Virus record (IMG/VR): IMGVR_UViG_3300031991_000010
Location: 1 to 59,551 of that record
Length of the DNA stretch: 59,551 nt
Source of the DNA: a virus
Strand: one strand, 5' to 3'
In this document: positions 4,836 to 33,809 of the stretch, piece by piece
Position numbering within the stretch: position 1 is the stretch's first letter
How the letters are laid out: each line of letters opens with the position of its first letter
Position numbers and translations under genes: made by a program
Notes under the pieces: generated by a model
Told to the model about the DNA's origin: nothing
The model's input: the letters and a program-made list of their open reading frames with translations, nothing else
The model's database searches: none

Positions 4836-7654
4836 GCAAACCCCCTGATCTTCTTGATGAATTCTTCCGGCCAGCGCCGGCCGGCGATGCGCCAGAACTT
4901 GCCTTGCGGCTCGACGAAAATCTCGCTCGGCGCAGTCAGTTCGCCGACGCGGCGCAGACCGTCCGTCACGGTGTCGGGCGCCGGTATCTGGCCGCCGTGC
5001 ATCTTCCACCACTCAACGGCGCGCCGCCTGGCGGGGCCGTCATGCTCAAAACAAATCCACTCGCGGTGTTGCGAAAGGCCAGCATAGTAGGTCACGCACA
5101 TACTGTTGGGCGCGCCGATCTTCTCGTGACGCACCATGTTCCAATGATCGACGCGCACGCCTTGGTTGGTGACTTCCGTGCTGATCACGGCCACGTTCTC
5201 ATCGGGCTCGGCCGCGTGCTTCTCCTTGACCGGATACTCATAGCCGCAGTCGACGCATTCGAGCGCGCGCAGATCGTTGAGTGCGTCGCAGTTGGGGCAA
5301 AGCTTCGCCTGCACGCTGTTGACCGCGACCTTGCCGTCGCCCTCGCCTTTCGGCTTCTTGTCGCGCCCTTCCACCATGTCGACAGGGCCGTGACGCATCA
5401 CGTTGCCGGCGAAGTCGAGCACGAGACAGTTCGCCTTCGCGCCAGCCGCAATGGATGCCCTGCGCTCTTCGCGCGTGGCGTCGTTCGGCTCGAACCCCGG
5501 TTCATAGATCGGCCGGGTGCCGCGCCCGATCATCTGCGTATAGAGGCCGCCTGAGAGCGTCGGGCGCAGGAAGCCGATCAGATCGACGCCAGGCGCATCG
5601 AAGCCCGTCGTGTTTCCGACAACCGCAACCTTGCCGCCGCGTCGCGTAATGATGTTGCCCGTCACCGATGTGACGCACCACACACGTTCAATTCTGAAGT
5701 CAGTTTCAATGGAAAGTCGATCAACCGTAAGCTCCACGCTCTCACGCTTCCGCCAACTTAACTTCCACTGATCGGAGTGCTCTGGATTGCGATTGGCGAG
5801 CGGACTTTTCGTAAATCTGTAACCACGACATGCGCCCACAGCTTGAAGGAGATCATAGAGATCACTTTGCGCTCCAGCGACGTTTATGCCGCGAGAATTT
5901 GGCGTTTCACCGTCTCCGTGGTTTCCGTCCGCCATCCAAAATCCTTCAAGCAGGGCGGCGAATTGTTCCTCGTTTAGCGCCCAAAATTCAGGCACACCTT
6001 TCTTATCAAGATACGCCTCAAGTGGGAAATAGCCGCTCTCTCGTGCTTGGTCTGACCCGCCAGTTCCGCGAGCAATAGACCACCGAGCGACGCCGTTTCG
6101 TTCTGCGCGCGAATGTGCGAGATTGAGCCTCGCAAGCACGCCATCAAACCATTCAATGATTTTCGGATAAACGCATGATTGCGAGAACTCACAACGCGGC
6201 GATAGCGTGCCGTCGCCAAGCCAAAAACCAATGAACCTACACTCATCCAAGGAGAGGAGTTTAGGGCTTTTAGTCTCCATGCGGGCGCGACGGTTAACGT
6301 GCAGCTCAGCCGCCACCTTCGCGGCATCGACCGTCATGCCACGTTTTCGGTAAACGTAAGAAAGCGACCGGACGCGCGCGCGAACCGTAGTCGCGTCAGG
6401 CGCCTCGCCTGGTGCAAAGCTGATATCGAGCGGAGCCGCCACACCGGACACAGGTATATGAACCCGCTCATAAGCAACGTCTTCTGCGGCCTCAATGCGC
6501 CACGCTGTATGCTGTTCACGGACCACCATTCGGTGGTTACCTGTAACACGAATATTGTTGCGGGCGCTGTCGACGCTCACCATTTTTTCGTGCGCCTGGC
6601 GAGAACGTCGAACGATGTTTTGGGGCGGCGCGAAGACGACACTGCCGTCAAAGTCCCACGACGCTACCTGATGATCATAGGTCATGTCGTCAATCGACGT
6701 CCAACCGGACGACGTAAGAATTTCAGTTTTGTGATCCAAACAGAGCACGTTGGCGTTCGTCAGGCACCGGATGCGCCGCCCCTTGAACGCATTAATGATC
6801 TGTTTGCGCTCGGCCTTCGGCGTGTCGCCGGTAATTGTCTGCGTCTCGATCCCGAGTCCGCGCATGGCCTCGGCCACGGCATAGGCGTGGTTCACGCCAG
6901 AACAGAACATCAGCCACGAGTTGCGATCCCCGCCCCGCTGAAGCGTTGCCTCGCAGGCGGCGGCGATGAGATCGTCGTGCATGGCGGCTTTCTCAAGCCC
7001 GCCGGCAACGAACTCGCCGCCCCGCTTGGCGACACCCTGCACATCGATCTCGACGCCACTGCGTCGCGCTGTGATCGGCGCAAGCCATCCGTCTTCGATG
7101 CCCTCGCGGATGCCATAGTTGAACACGATCTCATCGAACAGCGCGCCGTTCCGGCCGACGATGTTGCCGCTGTCGAGCCGGAACGGCGTCGCCGTCAGCC
7201 CGAGCACCCGCATGTCCGGCGTGATCTTCCGCTGATCCTCAAAGAACTGAAGATACATGCCTTCGCCCTCGGCGGGCACGAGGTGCGCCTCATCGACGAC
7301 GATCAGATCGAACGCGCCGACTTCCCGCGTGCGCTTGTAGATCGACTGAATGTTCGCGCAGATCACCCGCTGATGGGTGTCCTTCCGGCCAAGGCCGGCG
7401 GAGTAGATGCCAATGCTGGCGCCCGCCCACAGGCCGCGCAGCGTGTTGTAGTTCTGTTCGACAAGCTCCTGCACGTGCACAAGCATGGCGATTCGCATGT
7501 GCGGAAACCGCTCGATGATCCTGCGCACCTTCTCCGCGAAGATCACCGACTTGCCGAGGCCGGTCGCCATGACGACAAGGGGATTGCCCCCGCCGCCACG
7601 CCAATAGGCGTCGATGCTGTCGAGACACGCGGATTGATAGGGGCGCAGTTTCAT
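4832..7654 (-). CDS. SF2 (DEAD/DEAH-like) DNA helicase, intein-containing precursor
   Basis: 940-aa ORF. Motif I ATGLGKS, II VVDEAH, III LTATP, V NANVL|TTGFDAPGVD (split by the intein), VI QMIGRGTR. C-terminal zinc ribbon CPNC...CVDC. Confidence 0.9.
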   Translation of the reverse strand: MKLRPYQSACLDSIDAYWRGGGGNPLVVMATGLGKSVIFAEKVRRIIERFPHMRIAMLVHVQELVEQNYNTLRGLWAGASIGIYSAGLGRKDTHQRVICANIQSIYKRTREVGAFDLIVVDEAHLVPAEGEGMYLQFFEDQRKITPDMRVLGLTATPFRLDSGNIVGRNGALFDEIVFNYGIREGIEDGWLAPITARRSGVEIDVQGVAKRGGEFVAGGLEKAAMHDDLIAAACEATLQRGGDRNSWLMFCSGVNHAYAVAEAMRGLGIETQTITGDTPKAERKQIINAFKGRRIRCLTNANVLCLDHKTEILTSSGWTSIDDMTYDHQVASWDFDGSVVFAPPQNIVRRSRQAHEKMVSVDSARNNIRVTGNHRMVVREQHTAWRIEAAEDVAYERVHIPVSGVAAPLDISFAPGEAPDATTVRARVRSLSYVYRKRGMTVDAAKVAAELHVNRRARMETKSPKLLSLDECRFIGFWLGDGTLSPRCEFSQSCVYPKIIEWFDGVLARLNLAHSRAERNGVARWSIARGTGGSDQARESGYFPLEAYLDKKGVPEFWALNEEQFAALLEGFWMADGNHGDGETPNSRGINVAGAQSDLYDLLQAVGACRGYRFTKSPLANRNPEHSDQWKLSWRKRESVELTVDRLSIETDFRIERVWCVTSVTGNIITRRGGKVAVVGNTTGFDAPGVDLIGFLRPTLSGGLYTQMIGRGTRPIYEPGFEPNDATREERRASIAAGAKANCLVLDFAGNVMRHGPVDMVEGRDKKPKGEGDGKVAVNSVQAKLCPNCDALNDLRALECVDCGYEYPVKEKHAAEPDENVAVISTEVTNQGVRVDHWNMVRHEKIGAPNSMCVTYYAGLSQHREWICFEHDGPARRRAVEWWKMHGGQIPAPDTVTDGLRRVGELTAPSEIFVEPQGKFWRIAGRRWPEEFIKKIRGFA
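5612..6742 (-). mobile_element. Intein (377 aa) with LAGLIDADG homing endonuclease, inserted in helicase motif V
   Basis: Starts CLDHKTEIL (block A, Cys1). Block B is IRVTGNHRMVV. LAGLIDADG motifs are FIGFWLGDGTL and LLEGFWMADGN. Ends VAVVGN followed by Thr+1. Removing it restores NANVL-TTGFDAPGVD. The region looks clearly lower in G+C than its flanks. Confidence 0.88.
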
Positions 7655-13462: not shown

Positions 13463-13513
13463 CTATTCCTTAATCTCTTCGCCTCAGAGTGTCCCTTGTT
13501 GAAGGAGACGAAC

Positions 13514-14164
13514 ATGAAAGAGCAAGGTCAATCTGAAGCCGAGACCATCGTGCGCGAAGGCGTGAGCCTTCTGCGCCCGAGTGGTCAGGCGTTCGCGCAT
13601 TCGCTTCTCAATCAGTTGTCGGAACGCGGTTCGCTGTCGGCCCGCCAGTTCGATTGCTTAGGAACCTTGGCGGCAGAGATCGAGGAAGCGCGCAAGCGCC
13701 AGGCTGCAAAGCCTGTCGAGATCAGCCTCGTGAAGATCAACGAAATGTTCGCCGCGCACGGCGGCAAGAGGGCGTTCTTTATGATCAAGGCCAGCGACGG
13801 TCAGCGCTTCCGCGTTGCCCGCGCCACGTCGAACAGCCGTTACTACGGTCAGTTGATGGTCACGAGCGAGGGCGCGACGTTCGGCGAGCGCAAATGGTAC
13901 GGCCGCATCGACGACGCCGGCAAGTTCCAACGCTCCTACGTGGGCGGCATTCAAAGTTATGACGGCGTGATCGCCGCGCTCGTCGAGTTTGCCGCTGATC
14001 CTGTGGCGGTCGCCGTCGCTTACGGCATCGAGACCAAGGAGTGTTGCTTCTGCGCTATCGAGTTGACCGACCCGCGCAGCGTTGAAGTTGGATATGGTCC
14101 GGTTTGTGCGAAGAAATGGTCGCTTCCGCACTCTGCAAATCGAAAGCTCGTATGCGTGTCTTAA
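13514..14164 (+). CDS. Hypothetical protein with C-terminal DUF6011-like zinc ribbon
   Basis: ATG at 13514 after GAAGGAG. C-terminal CCFCAIELTDPRSVEVGYGPVC matches the CxxC..LTDP.S...G.GP.C pattern. Confidence 0.7.
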   Translation: MKEQGQSEAETIVREGVSLLRPSGQAFAHSLLNQLSERGSLSARQFDCLGTLAAEIEEARKRQAAKPVEISLVKINEMFAAHGGKRAFFMIKASDGQRFRVARATSNSRYYGQLMVTSEGATFGERKWYGRIDDAGKFQRSYVGGIQSYDGVIAALVEFAADPVAVAVAYGIETKECCFCAIELTDPRSVEVGYGPVCAKKWSLPHSANRKLVCVS

Positions 14165-14604
14165 TTTACGCTCTTATTGATCCACGTTTTCCCAGCCAAC
14201 TTCGCTATATCGGGAAAACGACACAGCCAAGAGCCCGCCTGCGAAAGCATGTGCGGGCTCAGGGGCGCGACAGGCCAACACATCGCGGTAAGTGGATAAA
14301 AAGCATCTTAGCTGACGGCGTTGAGCCACAGATGATTCGTTTACTCATGGTCAAAGAAAAACATGCAAATGCCGCAGAGCGCGAAATGATTAAACGATCT
14401 CTCAGTGTCGGCCACCCTCTAACCAACGGAAGTATCGGCGGAGACGGCGGGGCTCTGATGCCGGAAGCTCAGGCGCGCGCCACGGCTAAAATTCGTGATC
14501 ATGTAAAGACTGGAAAGATAAAGCCACCAACAAGGCCAGAAATGAAAGTCTCGGCCGCATTCCTAAAACCTTCAAGACGAAACGTGGATCGCCGGAGTGG
14601 TTAG
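14152..14604 (+). CDS. GIY-YIG homing endonuclease (catalytic domain plus first NUMOD3-like repeats)
   Basis: VLIYALIDP...LRYIGKT...RLRKH...AAEREMI...LTNGSIGG. The region is visibly lower in G+C. The reading frame ends at 14604, but the homology continues in another frame. Confidence 0.8.
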   Translation: MRVLIYALIDPRFPSQLRYIGKTTQPRARLRKHVRAQGRDRPTHRGKWIKSILADGVEPQMIRLLMVKEKHANAAEREMIKRSLSVGHPLTNGSIGGDGGALMPEAQARATAKIRDHVKTGKIKPPTRPEMKVSAAFLKPSRRNVDRRSG

Positions 14605-15103: not shown

Positions 15104-15835
15104 ATGGAGAGAACGATGTTTGAGAAAATCAAAAACGAGCGGTGGCTTTCGGCCGCTGCGCTGTGGACGGCAGTCGGTGCGTGGACGGTGGTCGGCGTGA
15201 ACGGCTGGATGAATGCGACGTCGGGCATCCTCATGGTGCTGACCGTCACGTTGACGGTGGCGTTGCAGGTGTTCGGCGTTCGCGCGCTGAAGAACGCCGC
15301 GCAGATCGGCGGCGCTCGCGCCGTCGGCTTGGTGCTCCTCGGGCTCGGGTGCCTCGGGTGGTCGGGCTATTCCGGCCATCAGGGCATGATGGGCGCCGAG
15401 GCGCAGCGGTGGGCGCCGTGGGAGGCCAAGGAAGCGGCCGACGCGGCGGTCGCCATGATCGACGCCGAGATCGCGGCGGTGCCGGCGCTGAACGCGTTCA
15501 ATGAACATGGTCAGCGAATTGGCCCGATCACCCTCGGGGTGCTGGCCGGCGAGCGGGACAAGGTGATTGCCGGGCTGCACGCCCGGCGCGCCGAGGCGGC
15601 GAAGACGGCCGCCACCCATGCCGGCGTCGTGAAACCCGCCACGCGGGCCAGCGAGGCGCTTCTGTGGGCGTTGTCGGTGCTGATCGAGGCTATGGAAGCC
15701 CTCGGCTTCCTGTGCCTCACAGCGCCCCGCAGGGCCGTTGTGGCGGGGGTCGCCCTTGACCCGGCGCTCTCGCCGTCCGAACTTGCCCGCCGTCTCGTGG
15801 CGAACCGCAAGGATCGCCAGCCGCAGGCGGCGTGA
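15104..15835 (+). CDS. Polytopic membrane protein with central Ala-rich helical region
   Basis: 243 aa. About 3 N-terminal TM helices, a helical middle section, and a C-terminal hydrophobic helix. An alternative ATG at 15116 follows GGAGAG. Confidence 0.7.
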   Translation: MERTMFEKIKNERWLSAAALWTAVGAWTVVGVNGWMNATSGILMVLTVTLTVALQVFGVRALKNAAQIGGARAVGLVLLGLGCLGWSGYSGHQGMMGAEAQRWAPWEAKEAADAAVAMIDAEIAAVPALNAFNEHGQRIGPITLGVLAGERDKVIAGLHARRAEAAKTAATHAGVVKPATRASEALLWALSVLIEAMEALGFLCLTAPRRAVVAGVALDPALSPSELARRLVANRKDRQPQAA

Positions 15836-15857: not shown

Positions 15858-15871
15858 GTTCCACGTGAAAC
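15858..15871. repeat. Palindrome variant GTTCCACGTGAAAC, intergenic
   Basis: Same variant as at 10652, abutting the terminator stem. Confidence 0.85.
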
Positions 15872-15900
15872 GGCCCCGGGGAAACTCGGGGCCGTTTTTT
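15870..15900 (+). terminator. Rho-independent terminator of the rightward cluster
   Basis: Stem acggccccg / cggggccgt with an 8-nt loop, followed by TTTTTT. Confidence 0.8.
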
Positions 15901-15914
15901 CGTTCGCGGTAGCG

Positions 15915-15946
15915 ATGGACCGTCCTACGTAGGGCGGTCCATTTTT
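15915..15946 (+). terminator. Second tandem rho-independent terminator
   Basis: 11-bp stem atggaccgtcc / gggcggtccat (one G-U pair), loop tacgta, then TTTTT. Confidence 0.7.
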
Positions 15947-15964: not shown

Positions 15965-16120
15965 TCAGCGTCTACGTTGGCCGACCCCTTTCGGGATGGC
16001 CGCCGCCACCACGTCGGTAAGCCAATCGCCGATCTTCAGCCCGACGCAGAGCGTGATGCCGAACACGACGGTCTTCACGAGCGTGAAGCCTGGCGGCAAA
16101 TAGTCGTTGAGAAAGTCCAT
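15965..16120 (-). CDS. Single-TM peptide (51 aa), last gene of the late operon
   Basis: Not in the ORF track (under 60 aa). ATG at 16120 after GGAGAATCACC. MDFLNDYLPPGFTLVKTVVFGITLCVGLKIGDWLTDVVAAAIPKGVGQRRR*. Confidence 0.5.
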   Translation of the reverse strand: MDFLNDYLPPGFTLVKTVVFGITLCVGLKIGDWLTDVVAAAIPKGVGQRRR

Positions 16121-16142
16121 GGTGATTCTCCATTCACGCCTC

Positions 16143-17696
16143 CTAGTCCATCGCCAGAAGCTCTTCGATCTCTGCGCGCGTCATGCCGCTGCCGATGTGG
16201 ATCGAACGCACGACTTCGTTCGCGGGGTTCTCGACGTCGGCCGCGAGGAATGTCGCCATGCCGCCGCGATCCACGCGCGCGCCGATGCGCACCTGCGCCA
16301 AGCCTGCGGCCTGCGGCTCGATATCTTTCAAAATCAAACGCCGCACGTGACGGTTGCCTGACACGTCGTCGCGCTCGCCCTCATAGAAATCGATAACAGC
16401 GGTGCGCTGATCGTCGACCGCCGTGGTGACGATCTTCGATCCGTCGCGCTCAAGAGGGGTGTTGGTTTTCAGGAGCTTCACCATCACGCCGTCAGCGTCA
16501 GCAAAGCCGATGGAGTGGGTGAGACGTTCGTTCAGTGCGAGGTTCTTGATCGTGCCTTGTTCTGCCGCGCCCATCATGGCTGCGCCGTTGGCGACGGCAA
16601 TGTCGAACGGGATATCGCTGCGGCCAGGCTTGCCGAAGATGCTCTCGACGGCGCGCATGATAAGCGGCATCGACGTCATGCCGCCGATCAAGATCACGTC
16701 GTCGATTTCCTCGGGCGTGATCTTGGCCTTGCGCATAGCCGCTTCGCACGGCTCGACGGTGCGCTCGACGAGATCGGCGACGATGCTCTCGAACTCCTCG
16801 CGCGTCAGTGTCTCGCTCAACGTCGCCGTTTCAAGCTGGCCGGCGTCAGAGAGATTTTGCAGAATGATGTTGTGCGTCTCGGTAGAGGAGAGCGCTTCCT
16901 TGGCTTGCTCGACGGCCTCGTGCAGACGTTGCAGGGAAAGGCGGTTGCCGCGCACGTCGAGGCCGGTCTTCTCGTGCAGGCGCGCGATCATCAGTTCGAC
17001 GATGCGCTTGTCGAAATCCATGCCGCCGAGAAACTGATCGCCATCCCACGCGAGTACGTCGAAACCTTTCTTCTTCACTCGCATGATGGTGACGTCGAAT
17101 GTGCCGCCGCCGAAATCGTAAACGGCCACGGTGCGGCCGACGTCGCTCGACATGCCCCACGCCAGCGCCGCCGCCGAGGGCTCGGCCAACGTCTTCACGA
17201 CAGTCATACCGCCGAGCTTCACGGCGCTGACCATCTTCTGCGTCTGGTGCGGATCGAAGAACGCCGGCACCGTGAGGATGCAATGCGTCACGGGCTCGCC
17301 GAGGAACTTCTCGGCGTCGGCCTTCATCCTGCCAACCACCTCGCCGAGCACCGCCTCGGGGGAAATCAGCGTGTTCTCGGGGCCGACAAGGTACGCCTCG
17401 CCATTCGGACCCTCGGCAATGTCGAACGGCGCAAGCTCAATCATTTCCTGCACGAGCGGATCATCGAAGCGCCGACCGACAAGGCGCTTGGTTCCATAGA
17501 ACGTGAACGCCGAATTGCTCATCGACTGCATGCGCGCGATATGGCCGACAAGCGGCGCGCCGCGACCGCTCTCGGGGTAGGCGACAACGGTCGGCGTGAC
17601 GCGACGCTGCGCGTCGTTAGCCGGCGGGACGATCACTGATCCGCCCGTGCGCATGACTGCCATGCATGAGTTGGAAGTGCCGACATCTAGACCCAC
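16143..17696 (-). CDS. Hsp70/DnaK-family ATPase lacking the helical lid
   Basis: DVGTSNS, ILTVPAFFDPHQTQ...AEPSAAALAWG, VYDFGGGTFDVTI, GDQFLGGMDFD, ILIGGMTSMP. SBD-beta LNERLTHSIGF...FYEGER...IEPQAAGLAQVRIG. Ends at ...MTRAEIEELLAMD. The true start may be a non-canonical ATC at 17708. Confidence 0.9.
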   Translation of the reverse strand: MGLDVGTSNSCMAVMRTGGSVIVPPANDAQRRVTPTVVAYPESGRGAPLVGHIARMQSMSNSAFTFYGTKRLVGRRFDDPLVQEMIELAPFDIAEGPNGEAYLVGPENTLISPEAVLGEVVGRMKADAEKFLGEPVTHCILTVPAFFDPHQTQKMVSAVKLGGMTVVKTLAEPSAAALAWGMSSDVGRTVAVYDFGGGTFDVTIMRVKKKGFDVLAWDGDQFLGGMDFDKRIVELMIARLHEKTGLDVRGNRLSLQRLHEAVEQAKEALSSTETHNIILQNLSDAGQLETATLSETLTREEFESIVADLVERTVEPCEAAMRKAKITPEEIDDVILIGGMTSMPLIMRAVESIFGKPGRSDIPFDIAVANGAAMMGAAEQGTIKNLALNERLTHSIGFADADGVMVKLLKTNTPLERDGSKIVTTAVDDQRTAVIDFYEGERDDVSGNRHVRRLILKDIEPQAAGLAQVRIGARVDRGGMATFLAADVENPANEVVRSIHIGSGMTRAEIEELLAMD

Positions 17697-17720
17697 AATT
17701 TTCGGGATGGTCGCCTCCTA

Positions 17721-18842
17721 TTATTCAGTCGGTGGATCGCCAACGGGCGGTTCAGGGGGTTGCGGGGGCTCGGGAGGTTCCGGCGGATCAGCCTGCGGCT
17801 TGGGATCGTTGATGATGCCAAGCTCTTCAGCATCCCACGCGGCAAGCTCCTCATCCGTCGCCGGCCGCACGCGCACCTGATTCGGGCGTGGGCGCGGTTT
17901 CGGCTTGGGTGGTATTGGCGTTTCCACGATCACGATCTTTGCCGGCGCGACGCGCATGTCGAGCGCGGCCAGAAGGCCGAGCGTGAAGAGGGGTGCGCCG
18001 ATGATGATCAGAAGCTCGAACACCGCCGAGCGCGACAGGTCCATGAAGTTCGAGACGTCGCGGCGCTCGAACCCGGTCAGCCGGGACACGAACCCGTCGA
18101 CGGGGCGGGTGTCGGATTTCGTGGCGATGGTGTCGACGTTCGTCGCGCGTGCGCTGTCGAGCGCCTTGACGAGATCAGCCCGCTTGGCCGTGGCAAACGC
18201 CATCGTGTCGCTGCGCGCCTTGGCTGCGGTCTCTGCCGCCGCTGTGCGCTGGCGCACGAGGCGCGACATGCCGGTCGGATAGTTCGCCGGCACCTTGGAA
18301 ATCTGATCGTCGAACAGAGCGAGCGCGCGAGCGCTCTCGGCGTCGATCTTGTCGAGCGCCGCCTTGGTTTCGAGATCATGCGTGTCGAGCGCCGCCTCGG
18401 CCTCGGCGACCGCCGACACGGCGTTGACACCGCTCGTGACCGTCGCGCCCGAGGTGCGCTCATTGGCGTGACTGTAATAGTTGAACGCGCCCACGAGCGA
18501 AAAGCTAAGGAGCATGGCCGCCAGTAGGACGCCGAACCCGCCGATCCACCTGGCGCGCTTCATCATGGCCGCCTGCACCATGACAACGACGAGAAACGAG
18601 CCATAGGTGACGACTGCCGCCGTGTCGTGCGCCAGCCTGGCGTCTTCCGGCGGGAGCCACAGCGCCCATGATTTTTGCTGCGCAGGGAGTACGGCCGCCG
18701 TCAGCGCGAACAGCACCACGGCCAGCCACAAGAGCGAGAAAATGCGCATCAGGAAGGTTGTCGAGATAAAGAAATCCCGCACGACAATCGGGTCGCGCCA
18801 GAACTCGATCCAATACTTCTTCCACAGATTCTCGCGTTCCAT
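17721..18842 (-). CDS. Polytopic membrane protein with coiled-coil region and Pro-rich C-terminal tail
   Basis: 373 aa. About 3 N-terminal TMs, an Ala/Asp-rich helical region, a fourth TM (VFELLIIIGAPLFTLGLLAAL), then PKPKPRPRP...DPPEPPEPPQPPEPPVGDPPTE. Confidence 0.8.
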   Translation of the reverse strand: MERENLWKKYWIEFWRDPIVVRDFFISTTFLMRIFSLLWLAVVLFALTAAVLPAQQKSWALWLPPEDARLAHDTAAVVTYGSFLVVVMVQAAMMKRARWIGGFGVLLAAMLLSFSLVGAFNYYSHANERTSGATVTSGVNAVSAVAEAEAALDTHDLETKAALDKIDAESARALALFDDQISKVPANYPTGMSRLVRQRTAAAETAAKARSDTMAFATAKRADLVKALDSARATNVDTIATKSDTRPVDGFVSRLTGFERRDVSNFMDLSRSAVFELLIIIGAPLFTLGLLAALDMRVAPAKIVIVETPIPPKPKPRPRPNQVRVRPATDEELAAWDAEELGIINDPKPQADPPEPPEPPQPPEPPVGDPPTE

Positions 18843-18851
18843 TGTCAGCCC

Positions 18852-19307
18852 TTAATTGTTCCCGAGGAAGACACGCGAAGCGATATCCGCCGCGTGTCCG
18901 CCGGATTGCGCGCCGGCGCCGAACATGAGCATTCCGACCAACGCTGACACGATCAGAAGTTCTTTCCAGTAGCGCACGAGGAATGACGGCGGCTTGCGTT
19001 GCTCGCTCGCGGCCTCGGCAAACGAGGTGAGGGCGCGCACGAGCGGATCGTCTGCCGCTGCGCGCGGAGGAGGCACGATCACGGGGGTCGCATCCTTGAT
19101 CGCGCGCAGAATTTCGATGTGCCGGTTCGCGGCATCCTGTTTGATCTCGGCGCGAAGCTGGTTAACCGAGCTTCGCAGTTCATTGCTGAGACGATCAACC
19201 GCCGCGCGCGTGTCCCTTTGCGCTTCCGCGACCGCTGTGGTGTGCGCCTCGTTTGCACCGACGCGACCGGCAAGGTCCATCAGATGCTTCATCACATCTT
19301 CGCTCAA
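18852..19307 (-). CDS. Tail-anchored coiled-coil membrane protein (151 aa)
   Basis: TTG at 19307 sits 6 nt after AAGGGG (or ATG at 19292). Helical N-terminal part. C-terminal TM LLIVSALVGMLMFGAGA. Confidence 0.65.
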   Translation of the reverse strand: MSEDVMKHLMDLAGRVGANEAHTTAVAEAQRDTRAAVDRLSNELRSSVNQLRAEIKQDAANRHIEILRAIKDATPVIVPPPRAAADDPLVRALTSFAEAASEQRKPPSFLVRYWKELLIVSALVGMLMFGAGAQSGGHAADIASRVFLGNN

Positions 19308-19325
19308 CGTCAGCCCCTTAGTCCG

Positions 19326-19676
19326 TTAGCCAACCGGAACGCTGGCCCCGTCTGGAATGCCGTCCTTACATCGCGTGAGTCGTTCGGCGTTTACATCGTT
19401 GGCGGTGTTAACCGAGTTGAAGCGCATCTGTATCACGGTCAGCGCCCATGACTGCACGACTTCGTTCGGCGCGCCGGCCGGCGGCTTGGCGGGAACCACG
19501 AACCCTTCCGGCGGCTGCGGCCCGAGCGAGCATTCAGCGGGGAGGGGCTTGGTCTCCTGCGCCACCACTGGCGTCTCGATCAGCACCGGGCGCGTCACCA
19601 CTTCCTTCCGGCTCAATCCCAATGTCCCGCAGGAAGCGGTCAGGATCGACAATGAGAGCGCCACCACGGTTCGCAT
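19326..19676 (-). CDS. o-spanin-like outer-membrane lipoprotein (Rz1-like), overlapping the preceding gene out of frame
   Basis: MRTVVALSLSILTASCG lipobox and a Pro-rich mature part. The start lies 143 nt inside 19534..20355. Confidence 0.65.
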   Translation of the reverse strand: MRTVVALSLSILTASCGTLGLSRKEVVTRPVLIETPVVAQETKPLPAECSLGPQPPEGFVVPAKPPAGAPNEVVQSWALTVIQMRFNSVNTANDVNAERLTRCKDGIPDGASVPVG

Positions 19677-20355
19677 TTGCCTCAAGCTCCTTCTGTTTTT
19701 CCCGGCCTGAACGGATGCGCAAACCCTCGGCGCGCCCGCGCTTGAATGTCTCGGCCTCGCTGGCGATTGCCGCCTTTTGCTGCCGTGTGATTGTCTCGTT
19801 TGCCTGCGCCAGCGCCGAACGCAAGCCGCGCTCGGCCTCTTCCCACCCTCGGTTGGCGTTGACGGCGACCGCACTGTTTGCGCGCGCAAGCTCCAACGCC
19901 CTTTCGAGAGAGGGGATGGTGATGATCCGCATCCACAGCGCCCACGCGAGCACCGCCGCGAAGATCGCCAGGCCGGCGAGCGTCAGCCACACGGGCGTGA
20001 GGAAGGTCGATGGCGCAAACAGGGTGGTCGGCCGAGCCGCCATGACTCCCTGTAGCTGGCCCATTTCGCTGTTCACCTCGACGGTCTTCTTCTTCATCGA
20101 CAGATGAATGAAGCGGGTGAGGTAGCTGATCGACTTGCGCCAGGCGTCGAGGCTCGTGAGATACCACGCGCGCACGGGCGGGAAGACGAGCGACAAACGC
20201 CACAGGAAGAACAGCGCAATCACGGTGGCGAAAACGACGAACCACACACCCTTGATCGCAAGGAAACCGACCCCGAGCACAGCCAAGATCATGTAAACTT
20301 CATTGCCGAACCCATCGGCGAAGCTCTTTTCACTGGTGATCGGTTCTTCTTCCAC
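19534..20355 (-). CDS. Membrane protein with C-terminal i-spanin-like coiled coil (possible holin/i-spanin composite)
   Basis: 273 aa. Two N-terminal TMs, an internal Met (MKKKTVEV...) followed by a third TM, and the coiled coil ERALELARANS...ANETITRQQKAAIASEAETFKRGRAEG. Confidence 0.6.
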   Translation of the reverse strand: MEEEPITSEKSFADGFGNEVYMILAVLGVGFLAIKGVWFVVFATVIALFFLWRLSLVFPPVRAWYLTSLDAWRKSISYLTRFIHLSMKKKTVEVNSEMGQLQGVMAARPTTLFAPSTFLTPVWLTLAGLAIFAAVLAWALWMRIITIPSLERALELARANSAVAVNANRGWEEAERGLRSALAQANETITRQQKAAIASEAETFKRGRAEGLRIRSGREKQKELEANANRGGALIVDPDRFLRDIGIEPEGSGDAPGADRDASGGAGDQAPPR

Positions 20356-25847: not shown

Positions 25848-28800
25848 TTACTGGCGGTCGCGCATGAGCCCTTCCTCGTAGAACATGCCGGGATCGTCCA
25901 TCGGGCCGGGCGCGCGGCCGGTGAAGACGTCGGCGATGTAGTCGAGCGTGATCACCGCCTGGCGCGTCGGCAGGGCGAACCAATAGCCGGCCGTCATCAC
26001 CCCCTTTTTGCCGATCTTTTCCCACTCGTCGTCGGCGATATAGCCGTCTTCGTACACCTTGCCGCCGAGCTTCACGAAGTCCGCCGTCGTCGACATGGCG
26101 TCGCTAACGGGGGTGATGCTGTAGTCATAGGGTGAGAGCACCGCTGACACGAGATCGCGCACGCCGATGATCGTCGAGAGCGGGTAGGCGGCCACGGTCA
26201 TAATCACCCGCTTCAGCCTGTCGTCTTCGTCTTCGCCATTCTCTGCGTCGAGCCGGCCGCCGATGGCTTCCGACAGGATTGCCGGCAAAATCCACAGGAA
26301 GAGGGTGGCGTTGACGAACGATGAACGCGGGATGCGCCCGGTTGCGGCGCCGGGAAATTGCTCGCCGAACAGTTGGTTATAAAGCACGCTCATGTACGAG
26401 TAGAATTGCGTGAACAGCCGCATGCCCTCGCCGCCGCGCTGAAGGCGCGCCAGGTCTTTCGGGGAGCCCGAGCCCTGCGTCATGCGGATCACGCTGTCGG
26501 CGTGCTGCACGGCCGCATCATCGTCGCCCATCTTCACGTTGCTGATCTTTCCGCCGAGCGCTTGCTCGTAAGCGGTCAACCACACGGGCACAGACACGCC
26601 CATATCCATGATCCCGGTCAACCAGAAGAAGGAGCGGCGCACCTCAATCGGCACGATATCCCAATCCTGTCGCCCCTTGATCGATTGAAGCGCGTCGCGC
26701 ACGTCTCGATCCCATGTCGTCATCCGGTAGCGCAGCACGGCGCTCTTATCGAGCGCGAACTGAACCCTCCTCGGGATCACCTGCGGCTCGCCAAAGAACT
26801 TCCGCACTTGGTTCGGCAACGCCTGCGCAATGACTTGCATGTCGATGGACGCGGCGCGGCCCATGGATTTGGTCAGGCCGATGACGCCGATTCGCGGCAC
26901 CGCGCCGAGCATGCCGAGCGGTTGCACGATGGCCGTCGTGATCTTCATCCCCATGTTGACCACCGACGATCCGGTGCGCAGGCGAGAGAGAACTTTCTGG
27001 TAGGCGTTAGACGGATCGCGCACGTCGGCCGCCACGTTTTGAAGCCATGCGTTAATCTGGCGGTACTGTTGCGTGCCGGCGGCATCCTTGATCGCCGCGA
27101 TCATCTTGGGGTGGTTCGCCATGCGATAGACGTCGATCAGCGCACGGCGGTGCGTGAGATCGTGGATCACGTTATAGACGTGCTCCTGCATCACCATGAG
27201 ATCGAGCTTCACCGGCAAGCCGCCCGATCCGACGCGCTCCTGAAGGTGGCCCTTCTTGGTCTGCGGTCTGATCCAGTTGCCGCCCTTGGCGTCGAGCGTG
27301 ATAATCTTCTCGTCGCGCTTGTTGACCTTCTCGCTTTGCGCGCCGTCATACTTCAGCGGGTAGTAGCCGCCCGCGAAGATGCCATGTTTAGAGATCACGG
27401 GCGTAGCCTGCACGGCCGCCGGCATAACGCCGGTCAGTTCGTATTGCAGGGCGAACGACGGCTCACGATATTCGCCGATCCAATCCCAAATCGATTGCAC
27501 GACGTTCCAGTCGCGCGCCGTGAGGTGCGTGTCGAGAATATCCATGATCTCTTCGGGCGACTTGCCTGTGCCGTCCGCGACCGCCTTGACGTTGCCCTCG
27601 TTTCCCATGTTGAGCGCGAGCGCGATGATCTGCGATTTGGTCAGCGCATAGCCCTTGCCGAACTCGGGCATGCTGATCCGCTTCGACATGAGCGCGCCGC
27701 GCTCGATGCGCGTGTAGACCGAGAAAATCTTGTTCAGCCTGGCCGCCGCGACGGCGCTCATATCAAGCTCGGCTTCCTCGGCGCGGGCGATGGGTTGGAA
27801 CATGTAGCGCTGCACAGGGCCGGCGTCTTCCAAGCCGTCGAGCCACCGGAAAAGAAATTCGGGCTTGGTGTGGTCGGCGTGTGCCAGTTCGCGGAAGTCA
27901 TCGAGCTTGTCGAGCGCCGAGAGCGCGCCCTTGTCGCGCGCCTTTCCGCCTGGCGCATGGTTGGCGATCTGCGTCGTCATTTCGTCGATGGCGGCGCTCA
28001 TCGTCGCCTTGTTACGGGCGTCGAGGAGCTTCTTGGAATTGCGCGCGATGTGGTCGATGTTGCGGATGGCGTCGACCACCGCCTCGGCATCCGTGATCGG
28101 CATCTTGGTCAGTTCGCTCGCCGGCATTGCCACGATGGAACCGGGGATATCGAGCATGTGGCCCATCCCCATATCCTCGATTGTCTGCATCCACTCGCCG
28201 AGCGATTGCTCGCCAATGATGCGTGGCGCAAGCTCGGGCGAGATACCGAACTTCACGAGGAGTTGGTCGATCTGATCGCGCGCCTCGTTGTCATAGTTCT
28301 TGCGCGTCTTCTCGTTGTCGAACTTCTTCGTCCACCGCACGCCGGCCTCGAACCGCTCGGCGCGGTCGCGCGCAATGCGGTAAATGTGGAACGACATAAG
28401 CTGACGCGACTTCGCGCGCTCGGCCTCGGGGAACTTGCCGTCGCGGTAGAAGTCCTGCGCCTCTTTCGCGGCCTTCCGCTCGGCGCGAAGGTATTGCTCA
28501 AAGTTCAGCACCTCGCGCACCATCATGCGGTCGACGTGCGCCTCGGCCAGCTTCTTTGCGGCGCGGATCAGCACGTTCACCCGGTTGCCGGTGGCGCGGC
28601 CAATCGCTTCAAGCTCGATCTCGATCTTGCTGGCGGCGGCCATGTTGTGCGCGGCGCGCTTGGCAAGCTCGTCGACCGTGCCATCAAGGAACGGATCACT
28701 CAAGCCGTCGCTCTGAAGGCTAGCCTGCACATGATCCTCCACCGCATCCTTCAAGCGGGGCAGGGCGGCAAGTTCCTTCACAAGCTCATCGCCGCTCGTG

Positions 28801-31800
28801 TAGTCGAACACCGCGTGCATGTCGCGCAACGCCTCGATAGCGTCGTCGGGGTGCAAGCCGTCGTCGGCCATGGCGGCGCGCAGCTTCTTCGCTTGCTCGC
28901 GCCACAGTTGGCGCATCACCTTGCGGTTCAGCTTGATCGGCTTCAGCCCCGCAGGGCGCGGCTCGATGGCGGGATCGTCGGGCGCGCCAGGCTTAGACTG
29001 AAAAAGCGCAAACCCCTGCGTCGTGATCTTGGCGCGCATTTCCGGCGTGATCTGCATCACCCAAGCGCCGGCAACGTCGCCCTTCTCGATGACGTCATGT
29101 AATGCCTGATTAATCGCGCCGCTATCTCCTCCGGCCGCTGAAATCAATTCTGCGAATGCGCCGTCTTCATCCCACAGCATCGCGCCTTGCACCCAAATAT
29201 GGTAAGCGGCGACAAGCGGGTTTCTCTTGGCATCGTGCTTAAAATCCCATTCATACGAGTCGAGCGACACACCTTTGTCGTCATTGCCGGGGCGGCCTTT
29301 CGAGGCGACGAAAAACTCGCCGTCGTCGGTGCGACGCATAAGCGGCATGTTGCGACGAAGCGCAGACTTAACTTCGGTCGACATCCTATCCCACAGCGAG
29401 TGAAGGATTGCCTCGGCGGAGTTTGGATCGACAGGCCAGTCGGCAATGCTGTAAAACTCTCGATCCAGCGCGCTACTGCGCTCTGCGATGCGGCCGAAAA
29501 GCTCTTCTCTCTCAGCCTTCAAACGCTCTATATCGTCGTTCAGAGAAGAGCGCGGCGCGACGTACTCTTCAATCTGCTTCTGCGCTTTGGCGGCAGTTAT
29601 CTTTCCATCATTGGCTTCTTTCAGACGCTCGCCCGCATACTCCGCCTTCATGCTGTTGCGCTCGATCATGCGCGCGCTGTTGGCTTCTCCAAGAAGATCG
29701 TTAACCTCAGACCATCGCGGCTCGATTTCGCGCCACAGGGCGTTTTTCTTGTCAGTTAGTGCGTCAAGTTTTGTGCTGCGGCTCGGGTCATAACGATTGA
29801 ACCGCTCGATCAGTTCGAGCTTGTTCGCCGCGATGTGCTCGATGACGGCCTGTTTTAATTGCTCGCCGCGCGCCTTCGTGCCATCGAGCAATTCACTTAG
29901 TCCGACATAATCAAACTCGGCGCGCTTAGGCGTCACGCCATCAGCGCCTTTCAAGATTGCATCGCGCGCCGCTTTCCAGCCAAGTCCCCACGTGTGATCG
30001 GAAACCTTCAGCGCGCTTTGTTCGACGGCGGAATAGAACCCCATGGGGTCAAGTTGGCGCGACTGCCCCATGCTCCGCTGCGGCCACAGGATATCATCGA
30101 CGTCAGCGAACGTGTTATCGGTCGCCTGAAAGCGATCTCCAATGCGGCGGAAAGCGCCCGTGCGCACCTCGGCGCCGTGACCTTCACGGCCGCCACTCTC
30201 GAACAGATAGCCTTCCGGCAACAGACCAAGCGACTTCAGCGCGCCCGCCATCTTGTCGTGCAGTACGCCGCTTGGCGCGACGTACACGCCGCCTTTGCCA
30301 TCTGCGATCCATCGCGCGCTATCGTACTCAAACGGCCGTGCGCCGTTGGCGCGCTGCATCAAAGTCGGCGACGTCATGCGCGTCACTTCCTCGCGTGACG
30401 GGTTGTGGATCATCGTCACCGCCTCGCCCATGTTGTTCTGCACGGTGAACTTTCGCGCCGGGGCCGACTGCCCCATCGTCCCGCCGCTGTCGCTCTCCCA
30501 CGCGATCAGTTGCCGTTGCAGGCGCGTGCGTTGCGAGGGCTCCGTTGCGCGTGCCTCGGCAACCGCTTGCGCGTACTCGTCGGTGCCGGGCTCCGGCGTC
30601 ACGGCGATGGCGCGGTTGCCTTTTTTGGCCCACCCGCGCATGTCTTCGCTGTAGTCTTCAATATTGCTAATTAGCGCGGAAGCACGGCGACGTTGATCGA
30701 GCGCCTTGTGCGCACGGTCAAGATCGTCTTGCGTCATGCGGATCGTCGGGATCGCAATGCGCATCAGCGCCGGCTCACGAGCCAGCACATTTTCGGCTGA
30801 AGTCTGGGCGAGGAAGGTGTCTTGCGTCTCGAACGCTTCCACCTCTCCAGACAGAAAGCGGTAAAGCACTGCGTCATTGTCAGGATCGAGTCCGAGTGCG
30901 CGGATATCCGCTTTCAGTTTTTTTCGTTTGGCAGGCTCTAGCATATCCATGAACACCGCCGCGTGCGAAGACGCGCCGCCGATATGGAAAAGCTCGATGT
31001 ACTGAATGATGTGCTGAAGTTCATGGATCAGCCCGCTCATCACGCGAACCATGTTGTCGTCACGGCCAATGATAATCTGGTTGACGCCGCGCGCATGGTG
31101 GATGGCGGCGGCGTTGCCGGGGCCATAACCATCCCAAAAAATGACTTCGACGTTTCGCAGTTCAGGGTAGGCGTCAAACAATTCAGAGTGCGAAATGACA
31201 TCGCCGAGCAGCACGCGCATATCGAAATCCGCGCGCTGATTGAGCGAGGCGGAATAGCTCAATAGTTCACGCACGTTGGCGCGCGTCAAGCCGCTGCGCT
31301 GCCACGCTAGTTGCGCAGCGTCCATGATCTTGACGAACGTGTCCTGATTGAACGTGAAACGCACGTCTTTGTCAGAAATCCAGTAACGCCATTCACCGTC
31401 TGTTGGCGCGCGATACCATCCGAATGCTTTCAGGATTTCGCCCATCGAGACGCCGGCGGCCTCGGCCGCCTTCGCGCCCGCGAGTTTGGATCGGTTGGCC
31501 GTCTTGGAGTAGGTTCCGGCCCACTGCCCCATCGTCTCGATATCGTCGCCGTACTCGATAGCGTCGTCGATCTCGGCGTCGGTCACGTCGTCCGCCTCGG
31601 TCGCCGCGTCTGGCCCTGCGGCGCCGTCTTCCCACACGCCGCGTTCAAGCAATGCCTTGGCGCGATAGCCGCGCTGACCGCGCAATTCGAGGAGGGCGGT
31701 GCGGCGACGACGCGCAAGCTCGCGCTGCCATGAGAGCGTCTGTTCGCGGTAATGCGCACGCATGACGCTGGCGAGAAGATCGTCTTCAGACTGCGCGCGG

Positions 31801-33800: not shown

Positions 33801-33809
33801 GCGATGATC

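Follow-up and report, generated by a model that had tools for sequence, protein, structure and literature searches.

A naturally lidless Hsp70 encoded beside membrane proteins at the spanin end of a phage late operon

Ssz1/HSPA14 of the ribosome-associated complex are naturally occurring Hsp70s whose SBD is truncated and which remain bound to one partner, and Tim44 (for mtHsp70) and Sec63 (for BiP) hold an Hsp70 at the matrix or cytosolic face of a membrane protein; import motors built on a membrane-tethered Hsp70 are well established. All of these systems are eukaryotic, all have J-domain partners, and none shows sequence kinship to the phage membrane proteins described below; the comparison would be mechanistic only. 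HscA and HscC are single- or few-client Hsp70s that work without a NEF; HscA binds only one short Pro-containing segment, and a membrane-localised function has been inferred for HscC (PMC8215388). The client of HscA is IscU, with its LPPVK motif, and HscC goes with DjlB/DjlC. Unlike the phage Hsp70 described here, HscA and HscC retain the lid and have dedicated J-proteins.

Among viruses, a closterovirus-encoded Hsp70 homologue adjoins a ~6-kDa single-span membrane protein (PMC7595835) in a quintuple gene block composed of the small TM protein p6, Hsp70h, p60, CPm and CP. Viral proteins that match the phage Hsp70 best in structure include Hsp70h (E~1e-34, TM 0.67–0.72, at 17–22% identity). However, closteroviruses are eukaryotic RNA viruses, Hsp70h serves in the virion tail and in movement from cell to cell, and the block has neither polytopic nor tail-anchored partners; the resemblance is best read as analogy, with no common descent of the module. 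Phage-encoded parts of the Hsp70 system are known from moraphages (PMC12619734) and from the J-domain protein Rki (PMC7824862), and Lak/jumbo phages gave tblastn matches to the Hsp70. Moraphage DnaKs are full-length, recently acquired from hosts and often accompanied by DnaJ, in genomes above 200 kb (PMC12619734), whereas the present clade is old, lidless and J-less, and is fixed in the lysis region of ~58-kb podovirus-like phages. CnuD of CoCoNuT is an Hsp70-derived NBD/SBD unit in a conflict-related operon of type IV restriction systems (PMC10542128); it has degenerate ATPase motifs and McrBC/HEPN linkage, in contrast to the intact motifs and membrane-protein neighbours of the phage Hsp70.

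Architecture of the Hsp70 at the end of the late operon

The sequence analysed is IMG/VR virus record IMGVR_UViG_3300031991_000010, positions 1 to 59,551 (59,551 nt in all, here called the window). Its late operon ends with the genes for an Hsp70 and for proteins of 373, 151 and 51 aa, which follow an overlapped i-/o-spanin-like pair and precede a terminator. An earlier note on this DNA had placed the four ORFs at 16143–17696 (Hsp70), 17721–18842, 18852–19307 and 15965–16120; all are present there on the minus strand, and hydropathy agrees that the three neighbours are membrane proteins, the 51-aa one being a borderline call. The features of the region are as follows.

15868..15900, strand not assigned: bidirectional intrinsic terminator, a GC-rich hairpin between an A-run and a T-run that closes the late operon (folding)
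15915..15942, strand not assigned: a further strong hairpin, between the convergent genes (folding)
15965..16120, minus: small membrane peptide, 51 aa, with a basic C-terminus; final gene of the operon (hydropathy, L002 homologue)
16143..17708, minus: lidless Hsp70 (NBD, linker, SBDβ, helix αA), with its probable start (PF00012, DnaK alignment, AF2, start-codon analysis)
17714..17719, minus: Shine-Dalgarno AGGAGG, 5 nt 5' of the ATC codon (sequence, comparison with relatives)
17721..18842, minus: polytopic inner-membrane partner, 373 aa (hydropathy, AF2, alignments, 28-cluster family)
18852..19307, minus: tail-anchored helical protein, 151 aa (hydropathy, homologues in other loci)
19326..19676, minus: o-spanin-like lipoprotein, 116 aa (lipobox, PLPAEC motif, homology)
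19534..20355, minus: i-spanin-like protein W_273, 273 aa, TM plus coiled coil (hydropathy, L002 and L001 homologues)

The segment 15830–15975 folds with −62.9 kcal/mol (z=−4.3), a value reached by 0 of 200 shuffles. This strong terminator stands at the cassette end; no internal promoter or terminator was found in the window cassette.

The earlier note's assignment of the ORF to Hsp70/DnaK is borne out by a match to Pfam HSP70 (PF00012) of 428 bits (E=5e-128, profile positions 2–510 of 599). Residue-by-residue alignment with E. coli DnaK (2KHO) spans DnaK residues 5 to 516, and identity to DnaK is 36–37%. The protein ends 3 residues past the aligned end, at ~DnaK 519, and its lid is reduced to helix αA, as that note had seen; helices B–E of the SBDα lid and the C-terminal tail are absent from it and from 12 of 12 full-length clade members. 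The AF2 model (pLDDT 88.1) comprises the NBD, SBDβ and one terminal helix at 507–515. In SBDβ the alignment is continuous through DnaK 393–507, and eight β-strands are modelled at 387–500. A Foldseek search, which the note had proposed, returned truncated DnaK structures as the best PDB matches (TM 0.78); bacterial DnaK and engineered lid-truncated DnaK/BiP (PDB 7KRU/7KRV, 7A4U, 5OBU) have the same fold and the domain order NBD-linker-SBDβ-helix αA. Against the NCBIfam equivalogs the Hsp70 falls below the cutoffs for DnaK (NF001413, 419 vs 648 bits; TIGR02350, 404 vs 822) and HscA (TIGR01991, 317 vs 709); by these scores DnaK is the nearer of the two families.

As in DnaK, the catalytic residues K70, E171 and T199 are kept, being invariant among 14 clade members; the window Hsp70 also retains D8, D194 and D201, and its phosphate-1, phosphate-2 and adenosine motifs line up with those of DnaK. 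Judged from its sequence, ORF 16143–17696 is a true Hsp70 with intact ATPase residues and predicted catalysis. Unlike DnaK, it is naturally lidless and tail-less, phage-borne, fixed beside membrane proteins and without a co-encoded J-protein or GrpE. The clade departs from DnaK at cleft positions that do not vary in DnaK itself: the arch residue M404 is replaced by Ala or Gly in every member, Asp is the usual residue at T403, and N170 varies. The interdomain linker reads LALN where DnaK has VLLL, with the alternating hydrophobic residues kept. The altered cleft and linker residues fit a specialised client.

An actin/ParM/MreB-like cytoskeletal ATPase misread as Hsp70, the outcome that the earlier note had named as fatal to its assignment, would explain the sub-threshold matches to MreB_Mbl (19.5 bits, cutoff 27) and FtsA (19 bits, cutoff 31.8), but any ASKHA-fold protein gives such weak matches. 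The HSP70 score, the complete SBDβ sandwich and the DnaK structures as best structural matches refute this identity, the probability of which is negligible.

The ORF itself stands as the note described it, but its start probably does not. The annotated GTG at 17696 gives 517 aa; the true start is probably a non-canonical ATC at 17708, 12 nt upstream (521 aa), because AGGAGG lies 5 nt before this codon and its position is homologous to the ATG of relatives.

A single clade linked to a wider membrane-protein family

Lidless Hsp70s were found in about 12 lineages, all from metagenomes, a rare phage group in which a cut-down Hsp70 and two membrane proteins are encoded side by side where the cell-lysis genes end. 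Their split from DnaK has a bootstrap of 100/100 on a long branch, in a tree that takes in the fragmentary Hsp70s of two divergent loci, L016 and L019, and the truncation point is identical across these lineages, which span 38–72% identity. The comparative data refute the idea that the Hsp70 is only a piece of host dnaK, decaying or captured recently, that serves no function by itself. Its about 37–42% identity to bacterial DnaK, its truncated C-terminus and its probable non-ATG start in the window point to such a fragment, but the truncation shared by monophyletic, long-branched lineages, the invariance of the catalytic residues, a DnaK score far below the NF001413 cutoff and a GC3 of 0.81, like that of the rest of the phage, make it very improbable.

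Nor does the Hsp70 lack conserved linkage to the flanking membrane genes, which the earlier note had held would count against its proposal. In all 10 Hsp70 loci examined the Hsp70 gene lies 3' of the polytopic partner, directly so in 8; in 6 of these 8 the two genes overlap by 1–8 nt, suggesting translational coupling. An HNH endonuclease is inserted between them in two lineages. Identities of Hsp70 and partner drop in parallel (72/66, 61/51–53 and 52/48%), as expected under co-inheritance.

The polytopic partner belongs to a family of 28 clusters at 50% identity, and three of six loci found with the partner as bait have no Hsp70. The slot after the partner is variable, holding an Hsp70, a 66-aa gene, an HNH insertion or, in one Hsp70-less locus, an unrelated 824-aa GNAT-containing protein, and it behaves partly like a variable cargo site. 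The earlier picture of an autonomous four-gene Hsp70 cassette had to be revised: the Hsp70-less loci, together with a partner family that trails the spanins, argue that the membrane pair is the core module. On these sequence comparisons, the Hsp70 is an add-on to the spanin-linked pair, added once.

The membrane partners and the putative spanin pair

Hydropathy predicts four TM segments in the 373-aa protein (34–52, 76–94, 102–120 and 273–291). Its AF2 model contains a confident helical hairpin at 137–233 with the tip PANYPTG, and a disordered Pro-rich/charged tail; by the positive-inside rule the hairpin would be periplasmic and the tail cytoplasmic. The earlier note was right that the protein is polytopic with a Pro-rich tail, but in alignments the PPEPPEPP stretch is not conserved and the conserved part is RVRPAT-DEELAAW (324–336). 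This conserved segment (RVRPAT/LPxAT) contains Pro, as does the client segment of HscA. Since the motif is also present in Hsp70-less partners, e.g. P0128, it is no specific Hsp70 docking signature.

The 151-aa protein consists of a helical N-domain and, from hydropathy, a single C-terminal TM (117–135); homologues occur in 12 other loci, each time immediately 5' of the polytopic partner. For the 51-aa ORF, hydropathy gives one borderline TM (residues 8–26); its product is 44% identical (E=4e-13) to a 50-aa gene at the equivalent position in L002. Genes of 44–50 aa fill this slot in five loci (L001, L002, L008, L010 and L013), and an unrelated 69-aa ORF does so in L003.

Placement of the cassette directly 3' of the spanins, another claim of the earlier note, was confirmed. 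W_273 has a TM at 122–140 followed by a helical, charged C-terminal half, and two extra N-terminal TMs that are kept in its homologues, which occupy the same position in L002 (53%) and L001 (38%). Its 3' end is overlapped by 143 nt, out of frame, by the lipoprotein ORF 19326–19676 (MRTVVALSLSILTAS-C, lipobox LTASC), which is Pro-rich and has two conserved Cys. The lipobox Cys, the Pro-rich part and the overlap with an i-spanin-like gene are those of an o-spanin. This protein is homologous to small genes of L001, L007 and L010, and the lipobox and a conserved PLPAEC motif are found in 11 loci. Of 14 loci screened for a lipobox, 11, among them Hsp70-less and siphovirus-like ones, have the CC-TM/polytopic pair immediately 3' of an overlapped i-/o-spanin-like pair.

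J-domain, GrpE, endolysin and holin families are missing from the about 59 window ORFs in Pfam and PHROGs, as the earlier note had concluded. A six-frame J-domain HMM search of the window found no J-domain (lowest E 1.5), and the HMM did pick up both positive controls, DNAJB1 and SV40 LT. The 373-, 151- and 51-aa proteins have a lysis-cassette position, TMs and a charged tail; they match no holin family, nor any lysis family in Pfam, PHROGs or PDB, and their sizes are atypical of holins, being bigger than typical holins/antiholins. Against PADLOC-DB v2 neither the Hsp70 nor the polytopic partner had a match; the sole match was a marginal one, DrmC (E=0.006), to a coiled-coil segment of the 151-aa protein. 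A search of the phage collection yielded no relative, and literature searches revealed nothing comparable to a lidless phage Hsp70 with membrane partners, in line with the note's statement that no described system matches.

Possible roles of the Hsp70

The reading that we prefer, at a probability of roughly 0.35, is that the Hsp70 is a dedicated chaperone of the membrane proteins encoded with it, and that it serves them at the inner membrane as part of a complex associated with lysis. An ancestor of these phages would have acquired a DnaK-derived ATPase in a single event; the lid would then have been lost, and the gene would since have been passed on along with that of the membrane protein next to it on the 5' side. 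Having no signal peptide, the Hsp70 should stay cytoplasmic, and it may act at the inner membrane face on cytoplasmic parts of its co-translated neighbours. In the four-TM protein the candidate client is the disordered basic/acidic tail, and in the 151-aa protein it is the helical domain or the C-terminal TM before insertion; as a holdase or remodeller, the Hsp70 could set the insertion or oligomeric state of these partners. The two membrane proteins would form a conserved accessory pair at the spanin end of the lysis cassette, a location that makes lysis control (timing or efficiency) by an inner-membrane complex the most likely output. It is purely the gene neighbourhood that favours a role in lysis. 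Host DnaK may do the same job in lineages without a phage Hsp70.

A bolder and unlikely version is a chaperone-gated lysis or envelope machine, in which the four-TM and tail-anchored proteins would form a holin-like complex whose assembly or triggering is set by the Hsp70, held by the cytoplasmic tail of its partner without J-protein, NEF or lid. If so, lysis timing would be coupled to the ATP and proteostasis state of the cell, and the protein would be a natural minimal Hsp70 motor.

The earlier note had also suggested a link to the giant proteins or an anti-defence role, and we found no support for either. As a morphogenesis or ejection chaperone, the Hsp70 would prevent the giant polyvalent proteins, of 2650 and 1812 aa, from folding, or keep them competent to fold, so that they can be packaged; or, tethered to the membrane, it would pull or refold them at entry like Tim44-bound mtHsp70. 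The Hsp70-bearing contigs of the window, L001 and L013 each encode LPD22/LPD23 polyvalent proteins of 2650–3220 aa, the cassette is predicted to be co-expressed with structural genes, and the import motors noted above set a precedent. However, tail-fibre, tailspike and spanin genes lie between the cassette and the giant genes, the giant proteins have no J-like element (an HPD at residue 1650 scores only 0.1 bits), a late-made cytoplasmic protein would be absent at ejection unless packaged, and the membrane pair also occurs without Hsp70 in a siphovirus-like context (Phage-tail_3). We regard this function as improbable.

Somewhat less doubtful, though still given low odds, is a superinfection-exclusion or envelope defence moron, in which the inner-membrane pair, with the Hsp70 as ATP-driven accessory, would block entry of the genome or ejection proteins of competing phages into lysogens or infected cells. 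Such a role would suit the variable slot after the partner and a cassette in which every protein but the Hsp70 is a membrane protein. Against it, the cassette has no promoter of its own, lies 18 nt from the o-spanin gene and is packed closely against the late genes or overlaps them; the PADLOC search yielded only the marginal DrmC match; and the pair is fixed after the spanins although i-spanin-like proteins can barely be aligned between lineages, which is atypical of morons. The cassette is the very last part of the late operon, and the adjoining opposite-strand block carries an integrase in L001 and L017; this position beside a lysogeny block fits a moron too.

Identity of the lidless Hsp70 and layout of its operon

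The minus-strand ORF at 16143-17696 encodes a DnaK relative. The Pfam HSP70 profile matches it with E=5e-128 over positions 2-510 of 599, and matches to MreB and FtsA are sub-threshold; an actin-like ATPase, which the earlier note had named as grounds for refutation, is thus refuted by the data and keeps practically no probability. The alignment with E. coli DnaK spans residues 5-516, and the phage protein, which ends three residues further on, comprises NBD, linker, SBDβ and, of the lid, helix αA only. An AF2 model (pLDDT 88.1) has exactly this architecture, and the closest PDB structures are engineered truncated DnaKs (TM 0.78). 

The catalytic residues K70, E171 and T199 are invariant across the lidless clade. 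The Hsp70 misses every NCBIfam equivalog cutoff (DnaK, 419 vs 648; HscA, 317 vs 709), and several positions invariant within our own DnaK sample have changed: arch residue M404 is Ala or Gly throughout the clade, T403 is mostly Asp, and N170 is variable. An alternating polar/hydrophobic pattern replaces the VLLL linker of DnaK. Such changes across the clade at these positions suggest a remodelled, more open cleft. A 4-residue gap at the DnaK D211 loop was considered as a clade-specific loss of J-domain contact and dropped because non-proteobacterial DnaKs in the sample share it.

The Hsp70 lies in a run of minus-strand genes (15965-20355), listed here in transcription order; W proteins are window proteins numbered by length in amino acids.

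Genes of the cassette and its spanin region
19534-20355, minus strand: W_273, i-spanin-like; first
19326-19676, minus strand: lipoprotein ORF, o-spanin-like, overlapping W_273 out of frame; second
18852-19307, minus strand: W_151, coiled-coil/TM (CC-TM) protein; third
17721-18842, minus strand: W_373, polytopic partner; fourth
16143-17696, minus strand: Hsp70; fifth
15965-16120, minus strand: W_51, small TM peptide; sixth and last

These genes are tightly packed, with intergenic gaps of 9-24 nt, and GC3 of the three cassette genes scored (Hsp70, W_373 and W_51) is ~0.81, against 0.72-0.88 elsewhere in the phage. No convincing promoter or terminator was found inside the cassette, and two strong hairpins (z=-4.3) occupy the convergent gap past W_51; one has an A-run on one side and a T-run on the other, as expected of a bidirectional terminator. 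Together these features place the cassette at the distal end of the late operon, in agreement with the earlier note.

The true start of the Hsp70 is probably a non-canonical ATC at 17708 (codon 17708-17706), homologous to the ATG of relatives; the Hsp70s of two related loci, L002 and L010, begin MPKIVG. AGGAGG ends 5 nt before this ATC, and the annotated GTG lies 17 nt from the SD. In the same region (17694-17723), W_373 is closed by two stop codons (TAA TAG). The weak ATC start could mean that the Hsp70 is expressed at a low level relative to its partner.

Relatives of the cassette

Only a handful of short Hsp70 relatives were found in a 5.8-billion-protein database (P0002-P0007, later P0024, P0151, P0152 and P0176), and all stop just past helix αA. 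A neighbour-joining tree, which included the cut Hsp70 fragments of L016 and L019, parts the lidless clade from alphaproteobacterial and acidobacterial DnaKs with a bootstrap of 100/100. Every Hsp70 locus examined has the same gene order, a CC-TM protein of ~150-175 aa, a polytopic protein of 343-503 aa and then the Hsp70, and the flanking genes are true homologues. A peptide of ~44-50 aa and a strand switch follow in most loci; L003 carries an unrelated 69-aa ORF in the peptide position, of which L007, L016 and L019 end short. At six of eight uninterrupted junctions the Hsp70 gene and that of its partner share 1-8 nt. The observation of the earlier note is confirmed, far beyond chance, and its interpretation is supported in part. 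The second objection foreseen in the earlier note, a recently captured host dnaK fragment lacking conserved linkage, fails on the shared end point, the 100/100 clade and the conserved neighbours. That the gene is a decaying dnaK fragment is scarcely more credible than an actin-like identity, being refuted by its invariant catalytic residues, common end point and monophyletic clade.

In two separate lineages an HNH_3 homing-endonuclease gene sits exactly between partner and Hsp70 (L003-L006, e.g. L003:9363-10004, and L007:3014-3628); this junction therefore accepts mobile insertions or attracts them.

Searching 1.84 billion representatives exhaustively with a profile of the partner (W_373) family returned 28 clusters, 23 of them at E <= 1e-10. 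Six genomic contexts were recovered with this bait, three with an Hsp70 (L013, L016, L019) and three that have other genes in its place: a 66-aa gene in L015, an 824-aa protein after the partner in L017 (7641-10115) and a coiled-coil/TM protein in L018. Among genes replacing or opposite the Hsp70 in other loci, Pfam gave only a weak GNAT acetyltransferase match, to the 824-aa protein, whose location suggests that the position after the partner also serves as a cargo slot. Because the Hsp70-less lineages interleave with the Hsp70-bearing ones by similarity to the partner profile, and the Hsp70 has a single origin, secondary losses are favoured.

The membrane pair follows a TM/coiled-coil gene and an overlapped lipoprotein ORF in 11 of 14 loci checked, with or without Hsp70 (L009, L011 and L012 being too short to reach this region). 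The lipoprotein ORF is Pro-rich, with a lipobox and the conserved motif P-x-P-A/P-E-C, and overlaps the 3' end of the preceding gene out of frame, an arrangement like that of an overlapped two-component spanin. L013 has a non-canonical lipobox candidate, NAAC, and L019 a small two-TM protein at the lipoprotein position. Since the pair follows spanin-like genes whether or not an Hsp70 is present, the conserved unit comprises the spanins and the membrane pair, to which the Hsp70 and the small peptide were added once. The linkage behind the four-gene Hsp70 cassette of the earlier note is thus conserved, but its core is this unit and the Hsp70 an addition.

In the window, the o-spanin ORF (lipobox LTASC) shares 143 nt with W_273 in a different frame; in most loci gene callers missed or shortened it. 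Ahead of the TM and coiled coil usual for an i-spanin, W_273 carries two additional N-terminal TM segments, conserved in L001, L007 and L010, and may be a holin/i-spanin fusion.

Membrane partners and a proposed function

Neither W_373, W_151 nor W_51 has a meaningful match in Pfam, NCBIfam, PHROG or solved structures. Fold and PDB profile searches of W_373 and W_151 returned nothing at E <= 0.001; the best PDB match, apolipoprotein A-I (E=0.013), is probably compositional. W_373 has four predicted TM segments. In its AF2 model three helices are bundled in the membrane, residues 137-233 fold confidently (pLDDT above 90) into a helical hairpin tipped by the conserved PANYPTG, and a fourth TM leads into a disordered tail in which 330-340 form one short helix. 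From the positive-inside rule we infer a periplasmic location for the hairpin and a cytoplasmic one for the tail. Within the tail, conservation covers RVRPAT-DEELAAW and does not extend to the PPEPP stretch. The acidic-helix half of the motif also occurs in P0128, a partner lacking an Hsp70, so this putative family-wide tail motif is not claimable as an Hsp70-specific docking site. W_151 is a predicted helical protein with a C-terminal TM; that it is a lid homologue supplied in trans was rejected, since hhalign matched its family to DnaK lids with a probability of 0.2%. W_51 is a predicted small TM peptide, conserved in L002.

We propose, with a probability of about one in three, that a dedicated DnaK-derived Hsp70 at the inner membrane controls biogenesis or assembly of its partners' spanin-linked, lysis-associated complex. 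The Hsp70 would work at the cytoplasmic face, with the co-translated partners as clients, namely the W_373 tail and the cytosolic domain or uninserted TM of W_151, and would thereby set the biogenesis or assembly state of the complex. The lysis role is proposed from gene neighbourhood only. Speculatively, in lineages without a phage Hsp70 the tail motif may attract host DnaK instead.

HscA, with IscU/LPPVK, and HscC are documented narrow-client Hsp70s needing no NEF (PMC8215388) and provide precedents for a dedicated Hsp70 of this kind; a membrane-localised function of HscC with DjlB/DjlC has been inferred in review (PMC8215388). Moraphage Hsp70s, found in large phages, are full-length, recently host-acquired DnaKs, unlike the lidless protein, and jumbo phages encode J-domain proteins that are believed to bring in host Hsp70 (PMC12619734, PMC7824862). 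The ATPase motifs of the CoCoNuT Hsp70-like protein CnuD are degenerate and its neighbours differ (PMC10542128), whereas K70, E171 and T199 are kept here. The viral proteins that match best in structure are giant-virus Hsp70s and closterovirus Hsp70h; none of the named matches is recognisable as a phage Hsp70, and several top matches are nameless. The closterovirus block, in which the small TM protein p6 lies beside Hsp70h, is the nearest viral analogy, and its module is not homologous (PMC7595835). Literature searches found neither a lidless phage Hsp70 nor an Hsp70 within a lysis cassette; this is an Hsp70 machine of undescribed architecture, partner set and genomic niche. If the Hsp70 truly works on its membrane neighbours, this small system of three or four genes would be the first phage-encoded Hsp70 machine with dedicated partners, a natural experiment in which Hsp70 parts (lid, tail, J-protein, NEF) are removable under continued selection, and a pointer to a conserved, uncharacterised inner-membrane protein pair at the spanin end of lysis cassettes.

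A terminal -AA that resembles an ssrA-like ClpX/FtsH degron, frequently with an acidic context (-EAA or -RAA), closes about 11 of 30 partners and a number of Hsp70s in the clade. It is found on the Hsp70s of L001, L003, L007, L008, L013 and P0176, and on partners in L001, L003, L007, L008 and L013 and among P0127-P0144. The subclade formed by the window, L002 and L010 has lost it from both proteins.

The host phage and other possible roles

In agreement with the earlier note, no J-domain, GrpE, endolysin or holin family was found among ~59 window ORFs. A six-frame J-domain HMM search also found nothing, and it detected the controls, DNAJB1 and the SV40 LT J-domain. Because their phages show no recognisable holin or endolysin, the membrane pair could have a new function in lysis or in its control. 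A spanin-like pair is clear in the window despite the lack of a detectable endolysin or holin family in 59.5 kb. Just upstream of its i-spanin-like gene, L001 encodes a 158-aa Peptidase_C93 (BTLCP)-like protein (6880-7356; 26.5 bits, cutoff 27) as a possible endolysin of that phage, for which the window lacks a counterpart.

Two other roles compete with control of a lysis-associated complex. That the cassette is an exclusion or defence moron is unlikely; PADLOC gave no meaningful match for it, its only hit being a marginal one of W_151 to DrmC (E=0.006). Less likely still is that the Hsp70 serves the giant proteins as a chaperone in morphogenesis or ejection, as the 2650-aa protein contains no J-like element: an HPD candidate scored 0.1 bits, against 67.7 and 15.6 for controls, and was rejected.

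The phage, itself novel, resembles podoviruses and encodes a T7-type connector together with giant LPD22/LPD23 polyvalent proteins; its portal is only 20-25% identical to those of known phages. Partner searches of an annotated phage collection, IMG/VR (twice), GTDB genomes and JGI metagenome contigs returned nothing, nor did a DNA-level search of the cassette against phages. The two giant polyvalent proteins (25848-39248, minus strand; 2650 and 1812 aa) also show several HTH-like segments and a weak ART-PolyVal match; their counterparts in L001 and L013 have 2800 and 3220 aa.

A plus-strand multi-TM protein of ~243 aa (15104-15835), ending in -QAA, converges on the cassette and is 55% identical to its L010 equivalent. 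Similar-sized proteins with at least one predicted TM segment occupy this position in L001, L013, L015 and L017, that of L013 with an HTH-like segment at its end; the window protein could belong to a lysogeny or immunity region. Between the replication genes and the cassette lies a short plus-strand island (13496-14604), where DUF6011/zinc-finger and GIY-YIG matches from a pooled Pfam scan, not ORF-resolved, probably sit; this would suggest an insertion of homing-endonuclease type.
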